A stretch of 25,684 nucleotides of DNA from UHGV virus genome UHGV-0106419; one strand, 5' to 3'. Origin of the DNA: a virus. Shown here one piece after another: positions 5,635-22,508 of the stretch. How positions within the stretch are numbered: position 1 is the stretch's first letter; the number at the start of each line of letters is the position of its first letter. The translations under genes were made by a program, and so were the position numbers. The notes below the pieces were generated by a model. The model had not been told where the DNA came from. It saw only the letters and a list, made by a program, of their open reading frames with translations, and did not search any database.

Positions 5635-5972
5635 TTTTTATGTGAGCAGAAGATATTCATCAGAAACGATTATGTAAATCATTTTATTTTGCCAACGGCC
5701 TCATTGTCGAAAGAAAAGAATACGCCCGTATTTCCTGAATGGATTGACTTTTTTATCCAACCACACTTCAGCGCACTGCGTTTAAAAAATGCCTCATTCT
5801 TATGCGGAATATCATCATTTCATCATGATGTCTTTGATGAGCGGTGAACACAATACACTTGCGCTGTCTCTTCAGGATGAATCCCCTGGTCTGGTGCCTG
5901 TGGGCTGATGTTGCAGCAAAGCTAAGGTCGCTTAAACGCTACTCAGTATTCACTTTTCAGAGGATGAAATTT

Positions 5973-8900
5973 ATGAACAGGACCAGTCCCTATTATTGTC
6001 GCCGCTCAGTACTTTCCTTATTGATATCTGCCTTGATATATGCCCCGCCCGGGATGGCTGCCTTCACTACTAATGTTATTGGTGTGGTAAACGATGAGAC
6101 TGTAGATGGCAACCAAAAAGTGGATGAACGAGGTACAACAAATAACACTCATATTATCAACCATGGCCAGCAGAATGTTCATGGCGGGGTATCTAATGGA
6201 AGTCTTATTGAATCTGGTGGATATCAAGATATAGGAAGTCATAACAATTTTGTGGGGCAGGCTAATAATACAACCATTAACGGTGGCAGACAGTCGATTC
6301 ATGACGGGGGTATTTCCACAGGTACGACAATCGAGAGTGGCAATCAGGACGTTTATAAAGGGGGTATCAGCAATGGAACGACAATTAAGGGCGGTGCTTC
6401 ACGCGTAGAGGGAGGGAGTGCGAATGGAATACTCATTGATGGTGGTAGCCAGATAGTAAAAGTTCAAGGGCATGCTGATGGTACAACGATAAATAAGTCT
6501 GGCTCTCAGGACGTAGTACAAGGAAGTCTGGCAACGAACACAACCATAAATGGTGGTCGACAGTATGTTGAACAGAGCACAGTAGAAACAACAACCATTA
6601 AAAATGGCGGTGAGCAAAGAGTATATGAGAGCCGTGCGCTGGACACGACGATTGAAGGCGGAACTCAGTCTCTGAATAGTAAGTCAACGGCAAAAAATAC
6701 GCATATCTATTCTGGTGGCACGCAAATTGTTGATAACACCAGCACCTCGGATGTTATTGAAGTTTATTCTGGTGGCGTGCTTGATGTTAGTGGTGGTACG
6801 GCAACAAATGTTACCCAGCACGATGGTGCAATTTTAAAAACTAACACTAACGGTACGACGGTGAGCGGTACGAATAGTGAAGGTGCATTCTCCATCCACA
6901 ATCACGTGGCAGACAATGTGTTGCTGGAAAACGGTGGTCATTTAGACATAAACGCATATGGTTCGGCAAACAAGACGATTATTAAAGATAAAGGAACAAT
7001 GTCAGTTTTAACCAATGCTAAAGCTGATGCGACCCGAATAGATAATGGCGGGGTTATGGATGTTGCAGGAAACGCGACAAATACCATAATTAATGGTGGC
7101 ACACAGAATATTAATAATTATGGCATAGCCACAGGCACCAATATCAACAGCGGAACGCAAAATATCAAAAGCGGCGGGAAAGCTGACACAACAATTATAT
7201 CCTCCGGGAGCCGGCAGGTTGTTGAGAAAGATGGTACGGCAATTGGCAGCAATATTAGCGCCGGAGGCTCGCTGATTGTCTATACCGGCGGTATTGCACA
7301 TGGGGTTAACCAGGAGACGGGCAGTGCTTTAGTTGCCAACACGGGTGCAGGGACTGATATCGAAGGATACAACAAGCTCTCTCACTTCACTATTACCGGA
7401 GGGGAGGCTAATTATGTTGTGCTGGAAAATACCGGCGAACTGACGGTAGTGGCTAAAACCTCGGCGAAAAATACTACCATTGATACTGGCGGTAAGCTGA
7501 TTGTCCAGAAGGAGGCTAAAACAGATAGCACCAGACTTAATAATGGCGGCGTTCTGGAGGTTCAGGACGGTGGTGAGGCTAAGCATGTTGAGCAACAATC
7601 CGGCGGCGCATTAATTGCTTCCACGACCTCCGGAACACTTATCGAAGGAACCAACAGTTATGGTGATGCTTTCTACATCAGGAATTCAGAAGCTAAAAAT
7701 GTAGTGCTGGAAAACGCTGGCTCATTAACAGTCGTCACTGGTTCCCGCGCAGTTGACACGATTATTAATGCCAACGGCAAAATGGATGTTTATGGAAAAG
7801 ATGTTGGCACTGTACTCAATAGTGCTGGCACCCAAACAATATATGCCAGTGCCACTTCTGATAAAGCAAATATCAAAGGTGGCAAGCAAACGGTATATGG
7901 TTTAGCCACTGAAGCAAATATCGAAAGTGGTGAACAAATTGTTGATGGTGGGTCAACAGAGAAAACACACATCAATGGTGGCACGCAAACCGTTCAGAAT
8001 TATGGTAAGGCAATCAATACCGATATCGTCTCTGGCCTACAACAAATTATGGCAAACGGGACAGCGGAAGGTTCCATTATTAATGGGGGTTCACAGGTAG
8101 TTAATGAGGGCGGTCTGGCTGAAAACTCGGTGCTTAATGACGGCGGCACACTCGATGTGCGGGAGAAAGGCAGCGCAACGGGGATACAGCAGAGTAGCCA
8201 GGGCGCTTTGGTTGCAACCACCAGGGCGACGCGGGTCACAGGAACACGCGCGGATGGCGTCGCGTTCAGCATCGAGCAGGGTGCGGCGAACAATATCCTG
8301 CTGGCAAATGGCGGCGTGTTAACCGTGGAGTCAGACACCTCTTCTGACAAAACACAGGTCAATATGGGCGGACGGGAGATCGTCAAAACAAAAGCCACTG
8401 CGACAGGCACGACGCTCACCGGCGGTGAACAAATTGTCGAGGGTGTGGCGAATGAGACAACAATTAACGACGGCGGAATACAAACAGTTTCAGCTAACGG
8501 AGAGGCAATAAAAACAAAGATCAATGAAGGCGGTACGCTGACAGTCAACGATAATGGCAAAGCGACAGATATCGTCCAGAACAGCGGTGCCGCTCTCCAG
8601 ACGAGCACGGCTAACGGTATTGAAATCAGCGGTACTCACCAGTACGGTACTTTTTCCATTTCCGGCAATTTAGCGACCAATATGTTGCTGGAAAATGGCG
8701 GTAATTTATTGGTATTAGCAGGTACCGAAGCTCGCGACTCCACGGTTGGCAAGGGTGGGGCAATGCAAAACCTGGGTCAGGACTCCGCCACAAAGGTTAA
8801 CTCTGGCGGGCAATATACCCTTGGGCGGTCAAAAGATGAGTTTCAGGCTCTGGCCCGGGCAGAAGATCTCCAGGTCGCTGGCGGTACGGCAATCGTCTAC

Positions 8901-10553
8901 GCAGGTACGCTGGCGGATGCATCGGTCAGTGGCGCGACAGGAAGCCTGTCGTTAATGACGCCACGGGATAATGTTACGCCAGTTAAACTCGAAGGGGCGG
9001 TCCGGATTACCGATAGCGCGATATTGACTCTGGGAAATGGCGTCGATACCACGCTTGCCGACCTGACGGCTGCCAGCCGGGGCAGTGTCTGGCTTAACAG
9101 CAATAATTCCTGTGCAGGTACCAGCAACTGCGAATATAGAGTAAACAGTTTGCTACTCAACGACGGTGATGTTTATTTGTCAGCACAAACAGCAGCGCCT
9201 GCCACAACTAACGGTATCTACAATACGCTGACAACCAATGAACTTTCCGGTAGCGGTAATTTCTACCTGCATACCAACGTTGCAGGCTCCCGGGGCGATC
9301 AACTGGTCGTCAACAACAACGCCACTGGTAATTTTAAAATCTTTGTTCAGGATACCGGCGTCAGCCCACAGTCTGACGACGCGATGACGCTGGTGAAAAC
9401 AGGGGGAGGGGATGCTTCGTTTACGCTGGGCAATACCGGCGGTTTCGTTGATCTTGGGACCTATGAGTATGTCCTGAAAAGTGACGGCAACAGCAACTGG
9501 AACCTGACCAATGATGTCAAACCCAACCCGGACCCCATCCCAAATCCAAAGCCAGACCCAAAACCCGATCCAAAGCCAGACCCAAATCCAAAACCAGACC
9601 CTACTCCCGATCCAACGCCGACACCCGTTCCGGAGAAACGCATTACGCCTTCTACGGCAGCCGTACTCAATATGGCAGCAACATTACCGTTGGTATTTGA
9701 TGCTGAGCTAAACAGTATTCGCGAGCGGTTGAACATAATGAAAGCGAGTCCACACAACAATAATGTCTGGGGGGCGACGTATAACACCCGTAATAATGTC
9801 ACCACCGATGCGGGTGCCGGGTTTGAGCAGACGCTGACCGGAATGACAGTGGGGATCGACAGCCGTAATGATATTCCTGAAGGAATTACCACGCTAGGCG
9901 CTTTTATGGGCTATTCCCATTCACATATCGGTTTTGATCGCGGAGGACATGGCAGTGTGGGCAGTTATTCTCTGGGCGGCTATGCCAGTTGGGAACATGA
10001 AAGTGGTTTCTATCTGGACGGTGTCGTGAAGCTGAACCGTTTTAAAAGTAACGTAGCAGGTAAAATGAGCAGCGGTGGAGCCGCCAATGGCAGTTACCAC
10101 AGCAACGGGCTGGGCGGTCACATTGAAACCGGGATGCGATTTACCGATGGTAACTGGAACCTGACGCCGTATGCATCGTTAACGGGGTTCACCGCTGATA
10201 ACCCCGAATATCATTTATCCAATGGCATGAAATCGAAATCAGTCGATACCCGCAGTATATATCGTGAACTGGGCGCAACGCTGAGTTACAACATGCGTCT
10301 GGGGAACGGTATGGAAGTTGAGCCGTGGCTGAAGGCGGCTGTGCGCAAAGAATTTGTCGATGATAACCGGGTGAAAGTGAATAGTGACGGTAATTTCGTC
10401 AATTATTTGTCGGGCAGACGTGGAATATACCAGGCAGGTATTAAAGCCTCATTCAGCAGTACGTTAAGCGGGCATCTTGGGGTGGGGTATAGCCATAGTG
10501 CCGGTGTGGAATCCCCGTGGAACGCGGTAGCTGGTGTGAACTGGTCGTTCTGA
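5973..10553 (+). CDS. ypjA: AIDA-I-type adhesin-like autotransporter (1526 aa): signal peptide, repetitive passenger domain, proline-rich linker, C-terminal beta-barrel
   Basis: Start chosen at MNRTSPYY... (ATG 5973), giving 1526 aa. Signal peptide SVLSLLISALIYAPPGMAA. Degenerate ~19-residue GG-x-Q-x-V repeats across the passenger domain. C-terminus ends ...AVAGVNWSF (aromatic terminal residue). The ORF-track start at 5844 is a GTG extension. Confidence 0.85.
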   Translation: MNRTSPYYCRRSVLSLLISALIYAPPGMAAFTTNVIGVVNDETVDGNQKVDERGTTNNTHIINHGQQNVHGGVSNGSLIESGGYQDIGSHNNFVGQANNTTINGGRQSIHDGGISTGTTIESGNQDVYKGGISNGTTIKGGASRVEGGSANGILIDGGSQIVKVQGHADGTTINKSGSQDVVQGSLATNTTINGGRQYVEQSTVETTTIKNGGEQRVYESRALDTTIEGGTQSLNSKSTAKNTHIYSGGTQIVDNTSTSDVIEVYSGGVLDVSGGTATNVTQHDGAILKTNTNGTTVSGTNSEGAFSIHNHVADNVLLENGGHLDINAYGSANKTIIKDKGTMSVLTNAKADATRIDNGGVMDVAGNATNTIINGGTQNINNYGIATGTNINSGTQNIKSGGKADTTIISSGSRQVVEKDGTAIGSNISAGGSLIVYTGGIAHGVNQETGSALVANTGAGTDIEGYNKLSHFTITGGEANYVVLENTGELTVVAKTSAKNTTIDTGGKLIVQKEAKTDSTRLNNGGVLEVQDGGEAKHVEQQSGGALIASTTSGTLIEGTNSYGDAFYIRNSEAKNVVLENAGSLTVVTGSRAVDTIINANGKMDVYGKDVGTVLNSAGTQTIYASATSDKANIKGGKQTVYGLATEANIESGEQIVDGGSTEKTHINGGTQTVQNYGKAINTDIVSGLQQIMANGTAEGSIINGGSQVVNEGGLAENSVLNDGGTLDVREKGSATGIQQSSQGALVATTRATRVTGTRADGVAFSIEQGAANNILLANGGVLTVESDTSSDKTQVNMGGREIVKTKATATGTTLTGGEQIVEGVANETTINDGGIQTVSANGEAIKTKINEGGTLTVNDNGKATDIVQNSGAALQTSTANGIEISGTHQYGTFSISGNLATNMLLENGGNLLVLAGTEARDSTVGKGGAMQNLGQDSATKVNSGGQYTLGRSKDEFQALARAEDLQVAGGTAIVYAGTLADASVSGATGSLSLMTPRDNVTPVKLEGAVRITDSAILTLGNGVDTTLADLTAASRGSVWLNSNNSCAGTSNCEYRVNSLLLNDGDVYLSAQTAAPATTNGIYNTLTTNELSGSGNFYLHTNVAGSRGDQLVVNNNATGNFKIFVQDTGVSPQSDDAMTLVKTGGGDASFTLGNTGGFVDLGTYEYVLKSDGNSNWNLTNDVKPNPDPIPNPKPDPKPDPKPDPNPKPDPTPDPTPTPVPEKRITPSTAAVLNMAATLPLVFDAELNSIRERLNIMKASPHNNNVWGATYNTRNNVTTDAGAGFEQTLTGMTVGIDSRNDIPEGITTLGAFMGYSHSHIGFDRGGHGSVGSYSLGGYASWEHESGFYLDGVVKLNRFKSNVAGKMSSGGAANGSYHSNGLGGHIETGMRFTDGNWNLTPYASLTGFTADNPEYHLSNGMKSKSVDTRSIYRELGATLSYNMRLGNGMEVEPWLKAAVRKEFVDDNRVKVNSDGNFVNYLSGRRGIYQAGIKASFSSTLSGHLGVGYSHSAGVESPWNAVAGVNWSF
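9518..9635 (+). repeat. Tandem repeat block encoding the P-N/K-P-D-P linker of the autotransporter
   Basis: Two near-identical 24-bp units (TCCAAAGCCAGACCCAAA...) at about 9546 and 9570, flanked by degenerate copies; translates to PNPDPIPNPKPDPKPDPKPDPNPKPDPTPDPTPTP. Confidence 0.6.
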
Positions 10554-10817: not shown

Positions 10818-11717
10818 TTATGTCTGGATGTGGTCGTCAACACATCCTCTTTTAAATACAGGCGCTTTTACCTTAGTTGGATCATCTGTTTTAAAGATTT
10901 TCAATCGTTCACTGAAGAACATTACCTCAGATCCTTTGTACCGATCTTGAGCACTGTAGTTTATTCCATATACTAATGATGATGTCTTATACATAGCTTG
11001 GATCTCAGGAGTGTTATCGTAAGAAACAATCCAAGGTGTTTTAATATTATTCTGTACGACTTTTGCAACCCTAACATGATCATCATGATTATAATGGTTG
11101 ATATATAAACCTTTACCTTTTATGTAATAAGGTGGATCCAAATATGTTAATGAGTTTTGTGGCAATTGAATAACTATTTTTTTAATGAAATCAATTGCAT
11201 CCATGTTATATAAATCTATTCTGTGACGATTTTCTGATATTTTATGGATTCGAGAAATCAAATCACTCTTATTATAGCGAGCGTCAAGCTTCCATTTCCC
11301 TTCTTGATTTTTACCGCCAATTACTCCACCTTTTAATATTCCAGAACGATTTGTTCTATTGAGAAAAAAGGTTGAGAAACCAATTGTTAAAAGATCATGG
11401 TCTTTAGGATTATTAATTATATCTTTCTGCCTAAACCATTCATCCATTGTAACTTCAGTTCTTTCAATTAAAGAACATAATTGATCTGCATGATTTAATA
11501 CACTGTGCCAAAAAGCATAAACAGAAATATTAATATCATTAAGGATGATTTTTTCAGCTGCATTTAGATGTAACAGTTTCAATGCTAAACCAGCACCCCC
11601 AGCATATGGTTCGGCATAATGTATAGGCGAAAGATTATTTTCTTCAATAAGCCGAAGCATGAAATTTGCAAGCTTGCCTTTACCGCCAGGATAGCGAAGT
11701 GGGGTGTTAAAACGCAT
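10818..11717 (-). CDS. D12-class (Dam-family) N6-adenine DNA methyltransferase, 299 aa
   Basis: Motif I YAEPYAGGAG near the N-terminus and motif IV DPPYY at about residue 185, the alpha-class order. AGAGG RBS 7 nt upstream of the ATG. Confidence 0.8.
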   Translation of the reverse strand: MRFNTPLRYPGGKGKLANFMLRLIEENNLSPIHYAEPYAGGAGLALKLLHLNAAEKIILNDINISVYAFWHSVLNHADQLCSLIERTEVTMDEWFRQKDIINNPKDHDLLTIGFSTFFLNRTNRSGILKGGVIGGKNQEGKWKLDARYNKSDLISRIHKISENRHRIDLYNMDAIDFIKKIVIQLPQNSLTYLDPPYYIKGKGLYINHYNHDDHVRVAKVVQNNIKTPWIVSYDNTPEIQAMYKTSSLVYGINYSAQDRYKGSEVMFFSERLKIFKTDDPTKVKAPVFKRGCVDDHIQT

Positions 11718-11750
11718 ATGATACCTCTAAATGTCAGATCTAAAGTATAT

Positions 11751-11790
11751 CAAAAAAAGGGCTTTGTGGCCATCACATAAAGCCCTTTTT
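11751..11790 (-). terminator. Hairpin (AAAGGGCTTT...AAAGCCCTTT) with flanking T/A runs between the ATPase and MTase genes
   Basis: 10-bp stem read directly; U-run on both strands. Lies 7 nt downstream of the ATPase stop. Confidence 0.5.
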
Positions 11791-11796
11791 AATCAA

Positions 11797-13581
11797 TTAG
11801 TTATCTGACAGATATGATGAGATGGTAGCAGAATCGACACCATGTCCACTTGTCATAATAACTTTAAGACTCTTTATTAGTTCATTCTTGAAGCTATCCG
11901 ATTGCACAGGATTTTTCTCGACCCAATATCGATATGGGTTATCTTTAACTCGCCCTTTTACTTGGGCCTGAAATTGAGTCGTATGTGCAAAATCTTTAAA
12001 CAGTTTTCTAACTATCCCGCCATGGTTTTTGTTAACTTTTTTATAATTATCTATAAGGATTTTTAAATCAATCGGAGCGTTACCAATCTTTAGCGTTGCA
12101 ATTATGTCTTTAGCTGTTTTCATAAAAACAGCTTTTGTAAATTTATTTTTATTTTCCCAATATGCATCATCAGGTGGTAAATTATATAAAAACTCAAAAA
12201 TCATTTGGTCTGGAGGTAAGGTGCTTGGAAGCAAACATAAGTTTTTTTCTTTTTTGGCTTTTTTTGCATTAGCACTATTGTCGTGAACAACATCACCGTC
12301 TAAGACGATCAAGCTTTTAGCTGTAAATTCTGGTATTTTTCTTGCCATTAAGTCAAGCATGGCAGAGCAGCTAATATTTATATTCCCTAATGGATTTAAT
12401 ATTTTATTTATTTTTCGATCTGTTATCAATTGTTTGAAAAAGTCGAAACCTTCTTTGTCTTCAAAATATACATTTGCCTTTGGAAGACAAATGTCATCAT
12501 TAATTTTTACAGTTTCAACATGTAAATCAGCGTGGATATCTGTCCATGAAAGATTATTCTTTGTTTTAATATCTCCATATGTGTCTGTAAGATATATTGT
12601 TTTAAAGCTATCACTATCTTGTTTTGAACGATTATAGATATCCTCTATTATTAATGGAGAGTGCGAGGTCATGATTATTTGCAGATCGTATTGTTTTGCT
12701 GCTTTAGTTAGAATATTAATTAGCTCTAACTGTGCAGCAGGGAAAAGACCTGCATCGGCTTCATCAATTAACAATATTCCGCCATGATAATCAGAATAAG
12801 TTTCCTTCAATCTTTTAAATGAAAAAATTGCTTGGATTAATTGTCCAACATTATCTTCACCAACAGATACTGATTGGTGATCATAATTGTCACCATGGAC
12901 AACCATTGAATCGATAGTACCTTTTGTTGCTGTTACTGAGCTTCCATTGTTTTTTAGTAAGAGTTGGTTACTCATCATTCTAATTTCATCAGAATTTTCA
13001 TTGATGTACTGAACATCCCGTGTTGAGTAATCAGTCCTTAATGTAATAGGAAGAAGTCGTGCTAAGCTTAAAAAAATAACAGGATGAGTAACGTTTCTAC
13101 TTTGGTTTTTTTCCGGTATTGAATCATTTCCCCTGACTACAGGCCTTGATTTATCTCTGTCACTGTAGCTGTATAAACCTAATGTTAGTTTTTCAAGATG
13201 TTTGTTCGATGCACCATCATAGACACTAATTTTGACGTCCATTGAACCAGGAACATCAAATTGTTCTGAAAGCCTAAAATGTTCGCTGAAAGCTGACTTG
13301 AAGCTGCCATTTGTTAATGTTTTATATTGTGTTAAATCAGTCTCAGGGTTTTTGGTAAAGTCCTTTGTAAAGCTAAATATTTGGGCGATAATGCCAAGAA
13401 TTGTGGATTTAGATGTGCCATTTTTACCACAAATAACAGTTAGGCGAGAACCAAACTCGATGTTTATATTTTTCAGTCCGCGAAACTTCACAACATTTAT
13501 ATTTTTTAGTTTGGTAATTTGATTTGCCATGTTTCTATCTTGCTCCGTAAAATGGCCACAAATTGTGGCCAATAGTTTCAT
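11797..13581 (-). CDS. ABC-type ATPase with C-terminal TOPRIM-like domain (OLD-family-like nuclease); candidate defence/abortive-infection protein
   Basis: Walker A GKNGTSKST, Walker B ILLIDEADAG, H-loop MTSHSP. C-terminal YFEDKEGFDFF and IVLDGDV about 55 aa apart resemble the TOPRIM Glu and DxD motifs. An alternative start at 13530 (MANQ...) gives 577 aa. The first ATG is only 8 nt past the integrase stop. Confidence 0.65.
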   Translation of the reverse strand: MKLLATICGHFTEQDRNMANQITKLKNINVVKFRGLKNINIEFGSRLTVICGKNGTSKSTILGIIAQIFSFTKDFTKNPETDLTQYKTLTNGSFKSAFSEHFRLSEQFDVPGSMDVKISVYDGASNKHLEKLTLGLYSYSDRDKSRPVVRGNDSIPEKNQSRNVTHPVIFLSLARLLPITLRTDYSTRDVQYINENSDEIRMMSNQLLLKNNGSSVTATKGTIDSMVVHGDNYDHQSVSVGEDNVGQLIQAIFSFKRLKETYSDYHGGILLIDEADAGLFPAAQLELINILTKAAKQYDLQIIMTSHSPLIIEDIYNRSKQDSDSFKTIYLTDTYGDIKTKNNLSWTDIHADLHVETVKINDDICLPKANVYFEDKEGFDFFKQLITDRKINKILNPLGNINISCSAMLDLMARKIPEFTAKSLIVLDGDVVHDNSANAKKAKKEKNLCLLPSTLPPDQMIFEFLYNLPPDDAYWENKNKFTKAVFMKTAKDIIATLKIGNAPIDLKILIDNYKKVNKNHGGIVRKLFKDFAHTTQFQAQVKGRVKDNPYRYWVEKNPVQSDSFKNELIKSLKVIMTSGHGVDSATISSYLSDN

Positions 13582-13588
13582 GCTTGGA

Positions 13589-14755
13589 TTATATTGTTAT
13601 CTTCTTCAAGCTTGTTTGTCCATCATATTCCTTCAGATATGAGCCATAGTGCCTGAAAAGCATCTCAGGCCCTTTATGCCCCATTTGAGCTGCAAGCCAA
13701 AACAGGTTTGCTCCCCGGCTGATATGTCTGGTGGCGAATGTATGCCTGGTTTGATATGGGTTTCTGTAACGAATACCTGCTTTTCGCAATGTTGGCACCC
13801 ATGCTTTTTTCCTAATTGCATCAGCACTTGCCCAGGGTTTATTGGTCTTTGGATCTTCAAAGACAGTAGCATCCTTCATGAATGTAAATGGCTTCTGGTT
13901 TATCAACGCCAACATTGCTTCTTCAGTCAGTTCAACTTTACGGGTACCGGCTTTTGTCTTTGTTCCTTTGATAACTCCGACAACACTTGCGCTCTGAACA
14001 TGGGCTGTTTTTCCAACAAAGTCGATATCATGCCATCGTAGGGCACATAATTCAGAACTACGCAGGCCTGTATGTATGGCGAACCGGAACAGATTTTCCC
14101 ATTGTTTGTTTCCGGCTGCTGCTAGTAATGCATCAACTTCTGCTGGTGATAGCGGATCAACCACATAGCTGCTTTCTGCTTCTGACTTATCACTTTGGTA
14201 GCGCGAAGCAGTTACCAACGATACGGGGTTAATTTGAAGTACCCCATCGGTTACGGCTTCATCAAGTGCTGACCGCAGGAAAGATAACTGGTTGCGAATT
14301 GTTTTTAAGGTCGTTTTCTGGCTTTGAATCCACGCTTTCAGGATTGCTGGTGTTAATTCACTTGCAGGGCAAATGTGGAGTGAGGCTAACGCACTACGGC
14401 ATTTTTTATAACCACCAATCGTAGATGGTGAAAGTTTTCTCGTTTCGCAGATTTCAAGGTATTCGTCCAGGTACATTTTTACCGTTTTGCCTGCAGCAGC
14501 ATTACCAAAAATTTTCAAACGAGCAGAACGGGGAAAATATTCCGCATAAATGAATGTTCCCCTTTCGATCTTATTATGAATTTCGCCGAGTGTGCGCTCG
14601 GCGTATTTAATGTTCTTTGGTGTTACTTCCAGATTGGAAAGAGGCTCACGACATTTAACGCCTTTGTAGGTGAAAGTTATATTGATCGTTTCGCCCTGGC
14701 GGTGTTTCCTGATTGTTACGCCGCGCGGTAGTTTGAGCAGTTTTGTCTGGCCCAT
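13589..14755 (-). CDS. Phage integrase (tyrosine recombinase), 388 aa
   Basis: C-terminal catalytic region ...RHTFATRHISRGANLFWLAAQMGHKGPEMLFRHYGSY (R/H/Y residues) and N-terminal arm-binding-type domain. Overlaps the upstream xis-like ORF by 40 nt. Confidence 0.85.
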   Translation of the reverse strand: MGQTKLLKLPRGVTIRKHRQGETINITFTYKGVKCREPLSNLEVTPKNIKYAERTLGEIHNKIERGTFIYAEYFPRSARLKIFGNAAAGKTVKMYLDEYLEICETRKLSPSTIGGYKKCRSALASLHICPASELTPAILKAWIQSQKTTLKTIRNQLSFLRSALDEAVTDGVLQINPVSLVTASRYQSDKSEAESSYVVDPLSPAEVDALLAAAGNKQWENLFRFAIHTGLRSSELCALRWHDIDFVGKTAHVQSASVVGVIKGTKTKAGTRKVELTEEAMLALINQKPFTFMKDATVFEDPKTNKPWASADAIRKKAWVPTLRKAGIRYRNPYQTRHTFATRHISRGANLFWLAAQMGHKGPEMLFRHYGSYLKEYDGQTSLKKITI

Positions 14756-17609: not shown

Positions 17610-18284
17610 TTAGGCTTTGATTTTGTATCTTCTTGGTTTTCCTGAGAAAATCACTGTACCAATTATAGAGCAATTACCGTTGATCTTAATGTAAGGTTCA
17701 GGCCAGTTTGGGTTTAATGCTTTGAGGTAACGCTGTGTTCCATCTTCTATCAACCGCTTGAAGGTGGTTTCGCCTGTATCGTGCATCAATGCAATAACGT
17801 CGTCACCGTGGCAGGCAGGGACTTCAGGATCAACAAAAATCATGTCTCCCGGGCGGTACTCATCAATCATTGAATCACCAATCACCCGCAAGATATAAGT
17901 CATTTCGCCACAGGGTACAGGGCAGGGGTAAGTTTCTGCTGTGCTCAAATCAACCTCAGAATAGCCAACTTCTTTCCATGCTCCGGCCTGTACCCATGAT
18001 ATGACAGGGACTAACGTTATTTGTTTGTTAGTGATTGAAACATCAGGTTTTTTTGTGATGTTCGTGGTCTGGTGTTCTTGATCAAGCCATCCGACAGGCA
18101 GGTCGAAACATTTTTCGATGTGCCGCGCCATGCTGTCACCGATATTTTTAGTAGCACCATCTCCCATAAACCTGCTGGTCTGGGTTGGCTCGCGATCAAT
18201 CATAGTGGCAAAGGAAGAATTCCCGCCAACACCATCTCTCAGTTTTCTGGCGTTAGACCGCCGGATGTCATGGATTGTTTTCAT
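17610..18284 (-). CDS. cI-like prophage repressor (N-terminal HTH, C-terminal S24 LexA-like peptidase domain), 224 aa
   Basis: S24 motifs GDSM (Ser nucleophile) and downstream Lys (FKRL); divergent from the cro-like gene; operator repeats on both sides. Confidence 0.8.
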   Translation of the reverse strand: MKTIHDIRRSNARKLRDGVGGNSSFATMIDREPTQTSRFMGDGATKNIGDSMARHIEKCFDLPVGWLDQEHQTTNITKKPDVSITNKQITLVPVISWVQAGAWKEVGYSEVDLSTAETYPCPVPCGEMTYILRVIGDSMIDEYRPGDMIFVDPEVPACHGDDVIALMHDTGETTFKRLIEDGTQRYLKALNPNWPEPYIKINGNCSIIGTVIFSGKPRRYKIKA

Positions 18285-18298
18285 AACGAAATTAAAAC

Positions 18299-18369
18299 CC
18301 TTGTACCGTTAAGGTACAAGTATCTTGAAGGTTCATTTTAATCATGTAATATGTACACCGGAGGTACAT
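18299..18369. promoter_or_regulatory. OR-like operator/promoter region between the cI-like and cro-like genes
   Basis: Palindromes CTTGTACC-GTTAA-GGTACAAG (18299-18319) and ATGTAC-ACCGGAG-GTACAT (18351-18369); candidate PR -35 TTGAAG (18325-18330) and -10 TAATAT (18347-18352), 16-bp spacer. Confidence 0.5.
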
Positions 18370-18374
18370 ATTGT

Positions 18375-18575
18375 ATGAAAGCGTATTGGGACTCTTTAAC
18401 CAAAGAACAGCAGGGCGAGTTGGCCGGAAAAGTTGGCTCAACACCTGGCTACTTACGGCTGGTTTTCAATGGCTATAAAAAAGCCAGTTTTGTGCTGGCT
18501 AAAAAACTTGAGCAATGCACGTCAGGTGCAATTACGAAATCTGACTTAAGACCGGATATCTATCCGAAAGATTAA
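18375..18575 (+). CDS. Cro-like / YdaS-family small DNA-binding protein (66 aa)
   Basis: Start at MKAYWDS (ATG 18375) with GGAGG RBS; small HTH-type protein divergent from the repressor; resembles YdaS-type proteins as recalled. Confidence 0.55.
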   Translation: MKAYWDSLTKEQQGELAGKVGSTPGYLRLVFNGYKKASFVLAKKLEQCTSGAITKSDLRPDIYPKD

Positions 18576-18606: not shown

Positions 18607-19170
18607 ATGAGGCTAACCGTGGGTAAGTATCACTGGAAAGTAGAAAAACAGCCTGAGTGGTACGTGAAAGCTGTCAGAAAAACTATCGCAGCGTTGCCGG
18701 GTGGTTACGCTGAAGCAGCTGACTGGCTGGATGTAACAGAGAACGCATTATTTAACCGCCTTCGTGCCGATGGCGATCAGATTTTCCCGCTGGGATGGGC
18801 AATGGTTTTACAGCGCGCGGCTGGCACTCACTACATTGCGGATGCTGTCGCACAGTCTGCTGGTGGGGTGTTCGTATCGCTTCCTGAAATTGAGGAAGTA
18901 GAGAACGCCGATATAAACCAGCGCCTGCTGGAAGTCATCGAACAGATCGGGAATTACTCAAAGCAGATTCGTTCGGCAATCGAAGATGGGGTCGTGGAGC
19001 CACACGAGCAGACAGCAATTAATGATGAGTTGTATCTGTCAATTTCGAAGCTCCAGGAACATGCAGCACTGGTCTACAAAATCTTTTGCGCTCCAGAAAA
19101 GAGTGACGCCCGCGAGTGTGCAGCTCCGGGCGTCGTGGCGTTTTGTGTCTGTGGAGAAACTAACGCATGA
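18607..19170 (+). CDS. YdaT-like / CII-like regulatory protein (187 aa)
   Basis: Position immediately after the cro-like gene, as in Rac ydaS-ydaT; family assignment from memory. An alternative GTG start at 18619 has a better RBS. Confidence 0.45.
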   Translation: MRLTVGKYHWKVEKQPEWYVKAVRKTIAALPGGYAEAADWLDVTENALFNRLRADGDQIFPLGWAMVLQRAAGTHYIADAVAQSAGGVFVSLPEIEEVENADINQRLLEVIEQIGNYSKQIRSAIEDGVVEPHEQTAINDELYLSISKLQEHAALVYKIFCAPEKSDARECAAPGVVAFCVCGETNA

Positions 19171-20003
19171 ACAGTTTAACGGCAAATAACCGTTTGTCGC
19201 AACAGCTGGTGGTCAGTGTCGCTGAACACCTGTTGTTACGGCATGAATGCAGATTACCAAATCTCCTGGCTGTAAGTAACCACAGAGAACTTTACCTGAC
19301 TGTGGGGGGCGAGTTGTGCAGGAACTTAACCGCTGGTTTCGTGACGGAAGAGGACTTTATGTTCATGTTATTCGTTGGGAGCCAGAAACACAGCGCGTTA
19401 TCTATCTTCGCAAAGACTACCCGCATGAGTGCTTTAGTCCTTTGTGGAAATTCAGGCGTGATTTTGTTGAGTGTGAAGGACCACCAGCACATTGATTCTG
19501 CCATTCCGGGACGTTACACTGTTCAGGCACCTTATAAAGCGGGTGCCGGGATTGGCGTCCTGGAATTGATCAAGGCGATATATGACGCGCCAGCGTCTTT
19601 TTTATCGTCCGCATTTGCTCACATCAAAGTTATGGTGGGCTGGGCGGGGGCATCGAAAGATGCGCCGGTTTCCTTGATCACCGGTTACGCCAACCCCGTT
19701 CAGTTCACCACCAGCGAAATTGGCGTTTCCGGTGGTGGAAGTATTTCACCGATCAAGGAGGCTGCCATCATGGCTACTGTCCCAGCCCTCACTCGTCTGA
19801 ATGATGAAGACTTACATAAACTCAGTTATGTAACAACTGCACTACGTGCTCTGCGCAAGGTAACTCTTTCGGATCCGCAGGCACATCAGGTTCTGGTAGA
19901 AACCCTTCTTAACTTGCAAGCTGAACGTATTCGTCTGGCGGATAAGGCTAATTTTCATATTCACCGTCTCCTGAATATCAGCGGAGGGCATCGTCATGCT
20001 TAA
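19167..20003 (+). CDS. Hypothetical phage protein (278 aa) in the replication module
   Basis: ATGA start/stop overlap with the upstream gene; no motif recognised. Confidence 0.5.
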   Translation: MNSLTANNRLSQQLVVSVAEHLLLRHECRLPNLLAVSNHRELYLTVGGELCRNLTAGFVTEEDFMFMLFVGSQKHSALSIFAKTTRMSALVLCGNSGVILLSVKDHQHIDSAIPGRYTVQAPYKAGAGIGVLELIKAIYDAPASFLSSAFAHIKVMVGWAGASKDAPVSLITGYANPVQFTTSEIGVSGGGSISPIKEAAIMATVPALTRLNDEDLHKLSYVTTALRALRKVTLSDPQAHQVLVETLLNLQAERIRLADKANFHIHRLLNISGGHRHA

Positions 20004-20232
20004 TCCGTTGATCCTCAATATTTGCCGTTTGCTTCAGCGTAAAAAAACATCAATTCCTACAGTTGGGCAGTGGTACACCACGCCTGCAGGGCATGTTCTA
20101 CGTGTTAGCCTGGTTGACCGTGAATGCCAGAAGGTGATTTGTGAACCGCTGGGCCGTAATTACCGCGTCAGTATGCCGCTTATAGCCTTTCGCTCCGGAA
20201 AAAACATGAAGCATCTCGGAGGTGCAGCATGA
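19996..20232 (+). CDS. Hypothetical small phage protein (78 aa)
   Basis: 8-nt overlap with the upstream gene and ATGA overlap with the downstream gene. Confidence 0.4.
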   Translation: MLNPLILNICRLLQRKKTSIPTVGQWYTTPAGHVLRVSLVDRECQKVICEPLGRNYRVSMPLIAFRSGKNMKHLGGAA

Positions 20233-21047
20233 GTATGGAGCTGATGGTTAAAGCGATGAAAATTCGAGTGGGTAATCCATTGCGAAAACTGGTTCTGATC
20301 AAGCTGGCTGATAATGCCAGCGATCAGGGTGAGTGCTGGCCCAGCTACCAGCATATTGCTGACCAGTGCGAAATTAGCAAACGTTCTGTGATGAATCATA
20401 TTGCGGCCCTTTGTGAGTCCGGGCTGGTAAAAAAAGTCACCCGGAAAGGTGAAAAAGGTAACTCAAGTAATATCTATCTCCTTCATCTGGATGGTGCAGG
20501 AGATTCACTAGGGGGTAGTGCAAATAATTCACTATCTGGTGCAGCAAATTCACCAGGTAGTGCAGGAGTTGCACCAGGGGGTAGTGCAGGAGATTCACCC
20601 AGAACCAGTCACTCTTTTGAACCAGTCAAAGAACCAGTCAATGAACCAATAGCTGTTGGTGCATCTGCTGATGAGTCTGTGCGAGTTCGTTCAAACCGAC
20701 CGGAATACTCTCCGGAGTTTGAGCAGGCATGGCTGGCATACCCCAAACGTGCTGGTGGCAATTCAAAATCTGCAGCCTTCAAAGCCTGGAAAGCCCGTTT
20801 GAATGAGGGGGTAAAACCCGAAACCATGCTGGAAGGTGTGAAACGCTACGCGGGCTGGGTATCTGCGATGGGTAACAGCGGCACACAATTTGTGAAACAG
20901 GCTGTCACGTTCTTTGGCCCGGATCGTCATTTCGAAGAGTCCTGGGAAGTTCCTGCGGTATCTGCAGCCAGACGCGAGGACCCGTACTTCAAAGCCAGTT
21001 ACGACAACGTGGACTACAGCCAGATCCCGGCAGGATTCAGGGGGTGA
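20229..21047 (+). CDS. Putative replication initiator (N-terminal winged-HTH, Gly/Ser/Ala-rich linker, C-terminal domain), 272 aa
   Basis: N-terminal HTH-like region (SYQHIADQCEISKRSVMNHIAALCESGLV); the low-complexity linker is encoded by iteron-like DNA repeats, as in the lambda O/ori arrangement. Confidence 0.5.
   Translation: MSMELMVKAMKIRVGNPLRKLVLIKLADNASDQGECWPSYQHIADQCEISKRSVMNHIAALCESGLVKKVTRKGEKGNSSNIYLLHLDGAGDSLGGSANNSLSGAANSPGSAGVAPGGSAGDSPRTSHSFEPVKEPVNEPIAVGASADESVRVRSNRPEYSPEFEQAWLAYPKRAGGNSKSAAFKAWKARLNEGVKPETMLEGVKRYAGWVSAMGNSGTQFVKQAVTFFGPDRHFEESWEVPAVSAARREDPYFKASYDNVDYSQIPAGFRG
20493..20640 (+). repeat. Iteron-like direct repeats inside the replication gene; candidate origin
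   Basis: Five ~21-24-bp units (consensus GGTAGTGCAGGAGATTCACC) at 20493-20600, followed by three GAACCAGTCA copies at 20602, 20619 and 20631. Confidence 0.45.
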
Positions 21048-21049
21048 TC

Positions 21050-21535
21050 ATGAGTCTGTTAAATGACGTTCAGAAATTCATTGAAGCCCATCCGGGGTGT
21101 ACTTCCGGAGACATTGCGGATGCTTTTGCAGGTTACTCACGGCAGCGCGTTCTGCAGTCAGCAAGCAAGTTACGTCAGAGTGGGCGTGTGGCTCACCGTT
21201 GTGAAGGAGATACACGCAGACATTTCCCACGCCTGACTGAGAGAGCGCAGGAGCCGGAACCACAACCAGTTCGTGAAACCAGACCTGTGCGCAATTTCTA
21301 TGTCGGCACTAACGATCCCCGGGTGATTTTGTTGACCCGCCAGGCGGAAGAACTGGAGTCCAGGGGCTTATACCGTCGTGCTGCAACGGTGTGGATGGCG
21401 GCATTCCGTGAAAGCCACTCCCAGCCAGAACGAAACAATTTTCTGGCGCATCGTGAGCGGTGCTTACGGAAAAGCAGCAAGCGCGCTGCATCGGGTGAAG
21501 AGTGGTATCTGTCAGGGAATTACGTGGGGGCTTAA
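21050..21535 (+). CDS. Hypothetical phage protein (161 aa), Arg-rich
   Basis: ORF overlapping the upstream stop; start placed at ATG 21050 rather than GTG 21044. Confidence 0.45.
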   Translation: MSLLNDVQKFIEAHPGCTSGDIADAFAGYSRQRVLQSASKLRQSGRVAHRCEGDTRRHFPRLTERAQEPEPQPVRETRPVRNFYVGTNDPRVILLTRQAEELESRGLYRRAATVWMAAFRESHSQPERNNFLAHRERCLRKSSKRAASGEEWYLSGNYVGA

Positions 21536-22188
21536 TGAGTAATAAATATTGCCAGGCGCTGGTGGAGCTGCGGAACAAACCAGCCCATGAACTGAAGGAA
21601 GTGGGCGATCAGTGGCGCACGCCGGACAACATTTTCTGGGGAATTAACACCCTGTTTGGCCCGTTTGTTCTGGATCTGTTTACTGATGGTGATAACGCCA
21701 AATGTGCCGCTTATTACACTGCGGAAGACAACGCGCTGGCGCATGACTGGTCAGAACGTCTTGCGGAGCTTAAAGGTGCTGCCTTTGGTAATCCCCCGTA
21801 CAGCCGCGCCAGTCAGCATGAGGGGCAATACATCACCGGCATGCGTTACATCATGAAACATGCCAGTGCTATGCGTGATAAAGGCGGGCGCTATGTTTTC
21901 CTGATCAAAGCTGCCACCAGCGAAGTGTGGTGGCCGGAAGATGCAGACCATATTGCTTTTATTCGCGGGCGTATTGGTTTTGAACTGCCAGCCTGGTTTA
22001 TCCCGAAGGACGAGAAGCAGGTGCCGACAGGCGCTTTCTTCGCTGGTGCTATTGCTGTTTTCGACAAGACCTGGAAGGGACCGGCAATCAGCTACATCGG
22101 GCGCGATGAACTTGAGGCATGTGGTGAGGCCTTTCTGGTGCAGGTTCGCCAGCAGGCGGAAAAACTGGTCAGGGAGATGGCGGCATGA
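21536..22188 (+). CDS. Phage-type DNA N6-adenine methyltransferase (217 aa)
   Basis: NPPY catalytic motif (FGNPPYSR); ATG at 21536 directly abuts the upstream TAA; size and motif fit the small phage Dam family. Confidence 0.7.
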
Positions 22189-22508
22189 CGACATTAACTC
22201 AATGCCAGCAGCAGGTGCTGGATATGCTGATTTCTTACCAGAAAGAACGTGGCTTCCCGCCAACCAATCAGGAGGTGGCAACCATGCTGGGATACCGTTC
22301 AGTGAATGCAGCAGTGGAGCATCTTCGCGCACTGGAGAAAAAAGGCGTCATCACGATAAAGCGTGGCGTGGCCCGGGGGATAACGCTTCATACCGCGGTG
22401 AAGGACGACAGCGAGGCGGTCGGGATTATCCGCTCACTGCTTGCCGGTGAGGAAAACGCAAGGCTGCGTGCAACCCACTGGTTACATGAGAGAGGCCTGA
22501 AAGCATGA
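22185..22508 (+). CDS. LexA-N-terminal-like DNA-binding domain protein (107 aa)
   Basis: Resembles the LexA winged-HTH domain (QQQVLDMLISYQKERGFPPTNQEVA); ATGA overlap. Confidence 0.45.
   Translation: MTTLTQCQQQVLDMLISYQKERGFPPTNQEVATMLGYRSVNAAVEHLRALEKKGVITIKRGVARGITLHTAVKDDSEAVGIIRSLLAGEENARLRATHWLHERGLKA

Follow-up and report, generated by a model that had tools for sequence, protein, structure and literature searches.

We consider it likely that the replication origin of a lambdoid Escherichia coli prophage lies at positions 20494–20652 of the virus genome UHGV-0106419, embedded within the gene for its own initiator. The 25,684 nt stretch analysed here (the 25.7-kb window) carries the left part of this prophage, and its initiator gene, which encodes a 272-residue protein, occupies the position held by O in lambda, after cI, cro and cII. 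An initial annotation, made from the sequence alone, had suggested that the protein binds its own coding DNA as the origin. This reading is supported by a comparison of 191 homologous loci, by a DNA motif that is read in two frames, by covariation of the repeats with the recognition helix of the initiator, by DnaC- and DnaB-type neighbours of the gene in relatives, and by the lambda-like layout. The origin would represent a lambda-like plan in a widespread initiator family, in which we believe that the core element and the helix-to-iteron code are the parts most worth pursuit.

Iterons and domains of the initiator gene

The 272-residue protein matches phrog_270 ‘replication initiation protein’ (E 1.4e-88), and its residues 17–67 match Pfam HTH_36 (PF13730) with 44.1 bits, above the gathering cut-off of 25, which places it in that family. 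A match to DnaD_N is sub-threshold, and no NCBIfam model was found for the initiator. The five direct repeats and three GAACCAGTCA copies that had been noted inside the open reading frame (ORF), where they encode a linker, were confirmed in all particulars. The features that concern us are as follows.

20229–21047, plus strand: replication initiator gene, 819 nt, 272 aa (ORF list, phrog_270, Pfam HTH_36)
20229–20492, plus strand: coding region of the N-terminal winged-helix domain (aa 1–88), the presumed iteron-binding domain
20373–20420, plus strand: predicted recognition helix, codons 49–64 (ISKRSVMNHIAALCES), helix 51–64 in the model; covaries with iteron sequence
20455–20490: A+T-rich patch directly left of iteron 1, the most A+T-rich stretch of the gene in the window
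20494–20508: iteron 1, GTGCAGGAGATTCAC
20518–20532: iteron 2, GTGCAAATAATTCAC, arms kept and centre diverged
20539–20553: iteron 3, GTGCAGCAAATTCAC
20560–20574: iteron 4, GTGCAGGAGTTGCAC, arms perfectly symmetric
20584–20598: iteron 5, GTGCAGGAGATTCAC, 24 bp after iteron 4
20598–20652: core conserved throughout the family, CCCAGAACCAGTCACTCTTTTGAACCAGTCAAaGAACC, with one additional 12-bp unit in the window phage; holds the GAACCAGTCA copies
20706–20873, plus strand: coding region of the small helical C-terminal domain (aa about 160–215), an exchangeable module
21018–21044, plus strand: C-terminal nonapeptide SQIPAGFRG, an 8/9 match to the end of E. coli DnaT

The five repeats, which were also recovered by repeat finders, are in frame (GGTGCAGGAGATTCACTAGGG, GGTAGTGCAAATAATTCACTATCT, GGTGCAGCAAATTCACCA, GGTAGTGCAGGAGTTGCACCAGGG and GGTAGTGCAGGAGATTCACCC, of 21, 24, 18, 24 and 21 nt respectively). 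Their near-palindromic 15-bp cores have the form GTGCA-N5-TKCAC, are spaced 24, 21, 21 and 24 bp from start to start, and lie 266–370 nt into the gene. On both strands of the window, GTGCANNNNNTKCAC has these five sites only, against an expectation of 0.10, and none of 100 shuffles reached that count; at iteron 4 it matches both strands. The dyad pattern GTG[CA]A-N5-T[TG]CAC matched both strands at each of the five sites and had no further match in the window. As in a lambda-type origin, the initiator ORF therefore contains at least four dyad-symmetric direct repeats of about 15–19 bp. Three copies of GAACCAGTCA come next (20602, 20619 and 20631), and a fourth, degenerate one (GAACCAATAG) is at 20643. 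Neither a further repeat cluster nor another candidate origin was seen in the window, and no sigma-70-like promoter site was found in or near the repeats. An additional iteron-like site at 21201 (GTGAAGGAGATACAC, two mismatches) is not kept in phage ST64B and fails the dyad pattern, and was treated as chance. A reading of the region as an RNA or single-stranded DNA hairpin was also dropped, as folding of 20485–20665 gave an unremarkable z of −1.8.

In an AlphaFold2 model of the protein, the winged-helix domain (residues 1–88) is confident, with block-mean predicted local distance difference test (pLDDT) values of 72–93, and it is the only winged-helix domain. Residues 91–157 are predicted to be disordered (pLDDT < 50), and the repeat stretch encodes residues 89–141 (GAGDSLGGSANNSLSGAANSPGSAGVAPGGSAGDSPRTSHSFEPVKEPVNEP), mostly within this segment. 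The C-terminal domain comprises helices 162–170, 180–193 and 197–214 (block-mean pLDDT about 58–78) and had no Pfam or PDB sequence match in a profile search. Its terminal SQIPAGFRG is identical at eight of nine positions to SQIPPGFRG of E. coli DnaT, each at the extreme C-terminus (single-comparison E 0.01), and may be a short motif that recruits host replication-restart or helicase-loading proteins. Some phage records annotate the gene as DnaT (primosomal protein I). A profile comparison of the C-terminal domain with DnaT by hhalign gave E 0.36, and, with no PDB or Pfam match, homology to the C-terminal single-stranded DNA-binding domain of DnaT is unsupported beyond the last nine residues. 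Other C-terminal variants in the initiator family have different ends.

Conservation of the iterons and covariation with the recognition helix

We then compared the repeats among related loci. Eighty loci from distinct bacterial species were retrieved by protein patterns outside the repeats (GECWPSYQ and GTQ[FY]VKQA), and were combined with 120 viral contigs (matches listed, from a total of at least 120); 191 loci carrying the region, from Escherichia to Pseudomonas, Aeromonas and Shewanella, were analysed. The comparison of repeat number among related prophages, proposed in the initial annotation as a check, came out in favour of conservation: iterons are present at the same position of the gene across the 191 loci, usually in four or five copies. 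All spacings fall between 20 and 25 bp (21 bp, n = 238; 22 bp, n = 78; 23 bp, n = 68; 24 bp, n = 255); as in lambda-type arrays, they are near two helical turns and free of a multiple-of-three constraint. The final spacing is 24 bp in 177 of 179 loci, because in all loci the spacer before the last iteron (20556–20583 in the window) is longer by three bases, which lie in a run of G5 or C5. Most lineages have C(C/T)AGGGGGT in this spacer, and others (for example, Erwinia, Shewanella and Izhakiella) have CCACCCCCT.

In 79 of the 191 loci, one or more spacings are not divisible by three, so that a single protein contains translations of the DNA motif in two frames. Pseudomonas copies, for example, encode ‘...GVVQEIHQGSAAGSPPSAADSLGGSAGAAP...’, in which VQEIH and SAGDS-like peptides both derive from GTGCAGGAGATTCAC; a 23-bp step changes the frame and a 22-bp step then restores it. 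Since the same motif appears in two reading frames, it is the DNA that is conserved and not the peptide. The motif is also kept in Pseudomonas loci despite surroundings of ∼60% G+C. Further cases of DNA kept over peptide are the loci of Pseudomonas bharatica and Erwinia rhapontici (L037 and L033), whose initiators are frameshifted in or just after the array to give 133-aa and 218-aa products respectively, with the iterons and core DNA intact; these may be decaying prophages or assembly errors.

Copy number is variable. Close relatives (proteins > 90% identical) range from 242 to 302 aa because they carry about one to nine iterons, which explains the length variation of initiator genes. The 272-aa five-iteron form is by far the commonest cluster, with 2852 member sequences; phage cdtI has eight iterons through a 66-bp duplication, and relatives may have one copy more or one copy fewer of the 12-bp GAACCAGTCAAn unit.

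The predicted recognition helix (residues 49–58) and the iterons each fall into four types, and the helix type matches the iteron type in 166 of 169 loci, distributed as follows.

Helix x[KR]RS[VA][MIV]xH with iteron GTGnA-N5-TnCAC: 113 loci
Helix xRSTVKxH with iteron GGGGC...CC: 17 loci
Helix [DN]RSTVRxH with iteron TGTAGGCCCAGAAAGCA: 14 loci
Helix xK[ST][AT]VRxH with iteron TGCC...GCA: 22 loci

Lineages that differ in the sequence of their repeats keep the position and spacing. Within the first type, a change of MNH to MRH in Erwinia and Izhakiella accompanies a change of GTGCA..TKCAC to GTGAC..GTCAC in the iterons, and the same pair of changes recurs separately in Pseudoalteromonas, in a protein whose helix background is different. 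Iteron type does not depend on the C-terminal module: T1 iterons are combined with C-terminal clusters C1–C7, and C1 with iteron types T1–T4. The seven C-terminal clusters, all of which combine with one iteron type and among which the window protein belongs to C1, are unrelated to one another. This many-to-many pairing, in the same sequences, provides an internal control for the effect of relatedness on the helix–iteron correspondence. These comparisons indirectly support specific binding of the iterons by the N-terminal winged-helix domain, as judged from sequence covariation. Lambdoid O proteins are modular, with a DNA-binding domain that forms a specificity module together with the iterons and is joined to an exchangeable partner-binding module; the modularity of the present family follows the same logic. 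We believe that the family, with its four types each of iteron and helix and its common core, is a clear natural example of the co-evolution of protein–DNA specificity.

The conserved core, a proposed mechanism and alternative explanations

An element of ∼38 bp, CCCAGAACCAGTCACTCTTTTGAACCAGTCAAnGAACC, directly follows the last iteron in every locus, and is present in all 79 loci retrieved by protein pattern alone, with no more than four mismatches in a 17-nt anchor. The core codons AGA, AGT, CAC, TCT, TTT and GAA are 100% identical among sequences that encode the majority residue, whereas at N-domain residues that are ≥ 90% conserved in the same loci the commonest codon averages 0.58; the core is therefore near-invariant at synonymous sites. 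In the viral contigs, the element occurs only inside this initiator family, among the matches listed (at least 120). In 38 Pseudomonas loci the core is the G+C minimum within 400 bp on either side (0.44–0.47, compared with 0.55–0.65), and for this reason we regard it as a candidate for the unwinding or helicase-entry part of the origin, by analogy with the A+T-rich tract on the right of the iterons in lambda. For the adjacent A+T-rich element that the initial annotation suggested looking for, the observations are mixed. The right-hand core has 43% G+C in the window, which is a modest A+T-richness, and is the local minimum in Pseudomonas; in the patch on the left, 21-nt windows 135–120 nt left of the core element have 24–29% G+C. 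This left patch is only a weak trough (0.51–0.53 G+C) in Pseudomonas copies.

In relatives of the prophage, genes for a DnaC/IstB-like AAA+ loader and/or a DnaB-family helicase lie directly downstream of the initiator (loader and helicase in L039 and L053; helicase in L047 and L005; loader in L052), and these neighbours support the assignment as a replication initiator independently of annotation. A Pfam search of the downstream genes found no helicase or loader gene next to the initiator in the window prophage, which presumably relies on host DnaB–DnaC. We envisage that the N-terminal winged-helix domain binds the five dyad-symmetric 15-bp iterons, probably as one dimer per site, and that the spacing of about two helical turns would place the bound proteins on one face of the DNA in an O-some-like nucleoprotein complex. 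This complex may destabilize or mark the adjacent ∼38–55-bp core (20598–20652), where the replicative helicase would be loaded, and the exchangeable C-terminal domain with its DnaT-like tail presumably recruits host DnaB–DnaC. The DNA elements may be tolerated inside the ORF because the linker that they encode between the two domains is disordered. What we infer from these patterns is that the iterons are bound, that each holds a dimer, that the core is unwound and that the host helicase is used. If the array functions in this way, annotators should be warned that a Gly/Ser/Ala-rich ‘linker’ can be shaped by a DNA function.

More tentatively, we suggest that CCCAGAACCAGTCACTCTTTTGAACCAGTCAAnGAACC may be a portable ‘origin core’, a sequence-specific unwinding or helicase-loading site that is recognized by an invariant part of the N-domain (for example, the GECWPSYQ surface) or by a conserved gammaproteobacterial host factor, and that serves all iteron classes and all C-terminal or helicase-recruitment modules. 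Such a core would be previously undescribed and, with the helix-to-iteron code, would turn the family into a natural toolkit in which orthogonal origins have a single core in common.

Could the repeats have arisen without any function of the DNA, as by-products of replication slippage in a low-complexity Gly/Ser/Ala linker, with the copy-number polymorphism reflecting instability? The range of copy number among proteins that are > 90% identical, the 66-bp duplication in cdtI, the 12-bp variants and the predicted disorder of the linker would all fit. Nevertheless, a motif that is kept while the peptide changes frame, spacings limited to 20–25 bp with paired 23- and 22-bp steps and a last step fixed at 24 bp, persistence of the motif in G+C-rich Pseudomonas loci, and almost one-to-one covariation with the recognition helix are unexpected for a neutral linker. 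The comparative data thus contradict slippage as the explanation, and we consider it very improbable. If the repeats are initiator-binding sites, they might still be mainly regulatory, acting in autoregulation, as a transcriptional roadblock for downstream early genes or in handcuffing copy control, with replication starting elsewhere; covariation shows only that the winged helix and the repeats co-evolve, and not that replication starts here, and iteron plasmids use the same sites for control. Against this, no second repeat cluster that could serve as origin was seen in the window, the array is always coupled to an invariant core with a G+C trough typical of an unwinding region, and the same layout in lambda is the origin itself. 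Furthermore, the sites lie ∼265 nt inside the ORF, a long way from the early promoter region close to cro, and no promoter-like site was found within or near them. A mainly regulatory role therefore appears unlikely, although less so than slippage.

A third explanation concerns the core alone, which might be conserved as a recombination ‘linker’, a homology patch for the shuffling of N- and C-terminal modules, rather than as a working part of an origin. The element is placed exactly at the junction where C-terminal modules change, and ST64B and the window start to diverge at its right edge: the 54 aligned bp 5′ of the repeats are identical, the iterons and core are nearly so, and from the last, degenerate unit of the core onwards the two sequences differ. 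However, a homology patch alone would not be under purifying selection, yet eight core codons are 100% identical across genera while synonymous sites in the N-domain have diverged, and in Pseudomonas the element keeps codons less G+C-rich than its surroundings, at the local G+C minimum. We think it improbable that recombination alone accounts for the core. The two roles are compatible, as a functional core would also serve as a crossover point, and the coincidence of the core with the module junction means that it may have this additional role.

Several observations weigh against placing an origin at 20494–20652. The helix–iteron correlation is partly phylogenetic, and the raw counts are inflated by the relatedness of the sequences. 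Some E. coli variants (P0030, P0039 and P0042) have only one or two iterons (242–250 aa) or lack both the core in its entirety and the last iteron (247 aa); these may be defective, or fewer sites may suffice. The right-hand core is only modestly A+T-rich in the window, and no DnaA-box or IHF consensus was recognized in it, by eye only. The record of phage SfV annotates no ori. We found no experimental study of any member of the family in the literature searched, nor a published description of its origin or of its iteron and core sequences, and the Shiga toxin (Stx) phage literature states that nothing is known of the replication proteins of the Eru types (PMC8951638). We nevertheless consider the origin-in-initiator reading the best account of the comparative data.

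Prophage context and relation to known replication systems

The genes that precede the initiator in the prophage are arranged as follows.

13589–14755, minus strand: integrase
17610–18284, minus strand: cI-like repressor
18351–18575: cro-like gene
18607–19170: CII-like gene
19167–20003: Ash-domain protein
19996–20232: 78-aa ORF (phrog_1153, function unassigned)

On the 3′ side of the initiator are, in order, genes for a PerC/YfdN-like protein, Dam, a LexA-DNA-binding-domain protein, RusA and a KilA-N protein. The 78-aa ORF overlaps the initiator start codon (ATGA) and is also found 5′ of the initiator in SfV (orf38), cdtI (orf45) and PhiR63_1; its product could be a replication accessory protein. 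The LexA-domain protein (107 aa; 22185–22508) consists of little more than that DNA-binding domain (PF01726, E 2.8e-19), has no room for the cleavage/dimerization domain of LexA, and is kept in SfV (orf42) and cdtI (orf48). On the minus strand at 10818–13581, a D12-class methyltransferase that matches PADLOC PD-Lambda-5_B (E 5e-124) adjoins a 594-aa AAA_15/AAA_21 ATPase with PtuA/GajA/AriA-like matches; as they lie directly beside the integrase, the two are probably a prophage-borne anti-phage defence pair. Outside the prophage, 5844–10553 encodes a 1569-aa AIDA/pertactin-type autotransporter adhesin with tandem CCAAAnCC(A/C)GA repeats at 9539–9619 (periods 6, 12, 18 and 42), which overlap a weak, below-threshold PARP-repeat match (residues 1222–1283) between the pertactin and beta-barrel domains.

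The initiator gene is widespread. Its DNA is 97.9–99.4% identical in phages 1720a-02, SfV (orf39), cdtI (orf46), mEp460 and several Stx2 phages, and 88.8% identical in ST64B (sb42); most of it was found in 897 of 5426 complete E. coli genomes, and relatives occur in phages of Pseudomonas, Aeromonas, Shewanella, Vibrio and others.

The closest likeness is to lambda O/ori and to the lambdoid phages phi80, 82 and P22 (gene 18). In lambda, the O gene is 900 nt long, and the annotated ori has four iterons at 349–433 nt of it, with spacings of 20, 24 and 23 bp and an A-rich tract after them. In both systems the origin, annotated in lambda and proposed here, is one-third to one-half of the way into the initiator gene, with four or five dyad-symmetric iterons of about 15–19 bp spaced 20–24 bp and a less G+C-rich region immediately to their right; the N-terminal domain and iterons behave as one specificity module, the C-terminal domain is separately exchangeable, and the gene lies right of cII in the early-right operon. 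The lambda O/ori arrangement proposed in the initial annotation thus holds for the layout, and does not extend to detectable homology with lambda O: there was no Phage_rep_O (PF04492) match at E ≤ 0.01, and hhalign against lambda O gave no N-terminal alignment. With neither this homology nor a P-type loader gene downstream, we do not place the protein in the lambda O family (PF04492). The next gene in the window is PerC/YfdN-like, in contrast to the P-type loader that follows O. Furthermore, the right-hand element is a sequence-specific ∼38-bp core with GAACCAGTCA 10-mers rather than an A-tract-rich region, and is near-invariant across iteron specificities and hosts. Brezellec et al. (2017; PMC5509034) used HHpred to place HTH_36 at the N-terminus of lambda O, and a remote relationship is therefore possible. 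The same study describes DopC, a domesticated O-like protein with HTH_36 and a DnaT-C-like domain, at loci reportedly without iterons (PMC5509034), whereas the window initiator has five. DnaD N-terminal/HTH_36 proteins also differ, in that DnaD is not an iteron-binding origin recognizer.

The initiators of iteron plasmids (pSC101 RepA, F RepE, R6K pi and RK2 TrfA) resemble the present system in combining a winged-helix initiator, direct repeats about two helical turns apart and an adjacent unwinding element, here a candidate one. The RepA_N genes of Gram-positive plasmids likewise have an internal origin. The fold of the initiator is weakly similar to 4pql and 5kbj. We do not assign it to the iteron-plasmid Rep proteins: it has no Rep_3 or RepA_N Pfam match and one winged-helix domain rather than two. 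It also differs from them in that no DnaA boxes were seen by eye, and in its place within a phage early operon.

Among Stx phages, the window initiator is equivalent to the helix-turn-helix (HTH) protein of the ‘Eru6’ replication region, of which Stx2a_WGPS2 is the type phage (Llarena et al., 2022; PMC8951638). The gene of that phage has 98.5% DNA identity to the window gene, and the arrangement of a Rha/Ash protein and an HTH_36 protein is the same; the Eru1–3 types (Llarena 2021) do not correspond to the window module. The Eru6 paper classifies gene content only and describes no origin or iterons (PMC8951638). The ‘replication protein O’ of the Stx2 phages Min27, Stx2a_F451 and phiXuzhou21 has about 56% identity to initiator residues 1–138, and therefore belongs to the HTH_36 initiator family and is not a true lambda O, so that annotation can mislead. 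For non-lambda-type Stx phages, the position of the origin proposed here would offer a concrete target for the study of replication and hence of toxin-gene amplification.

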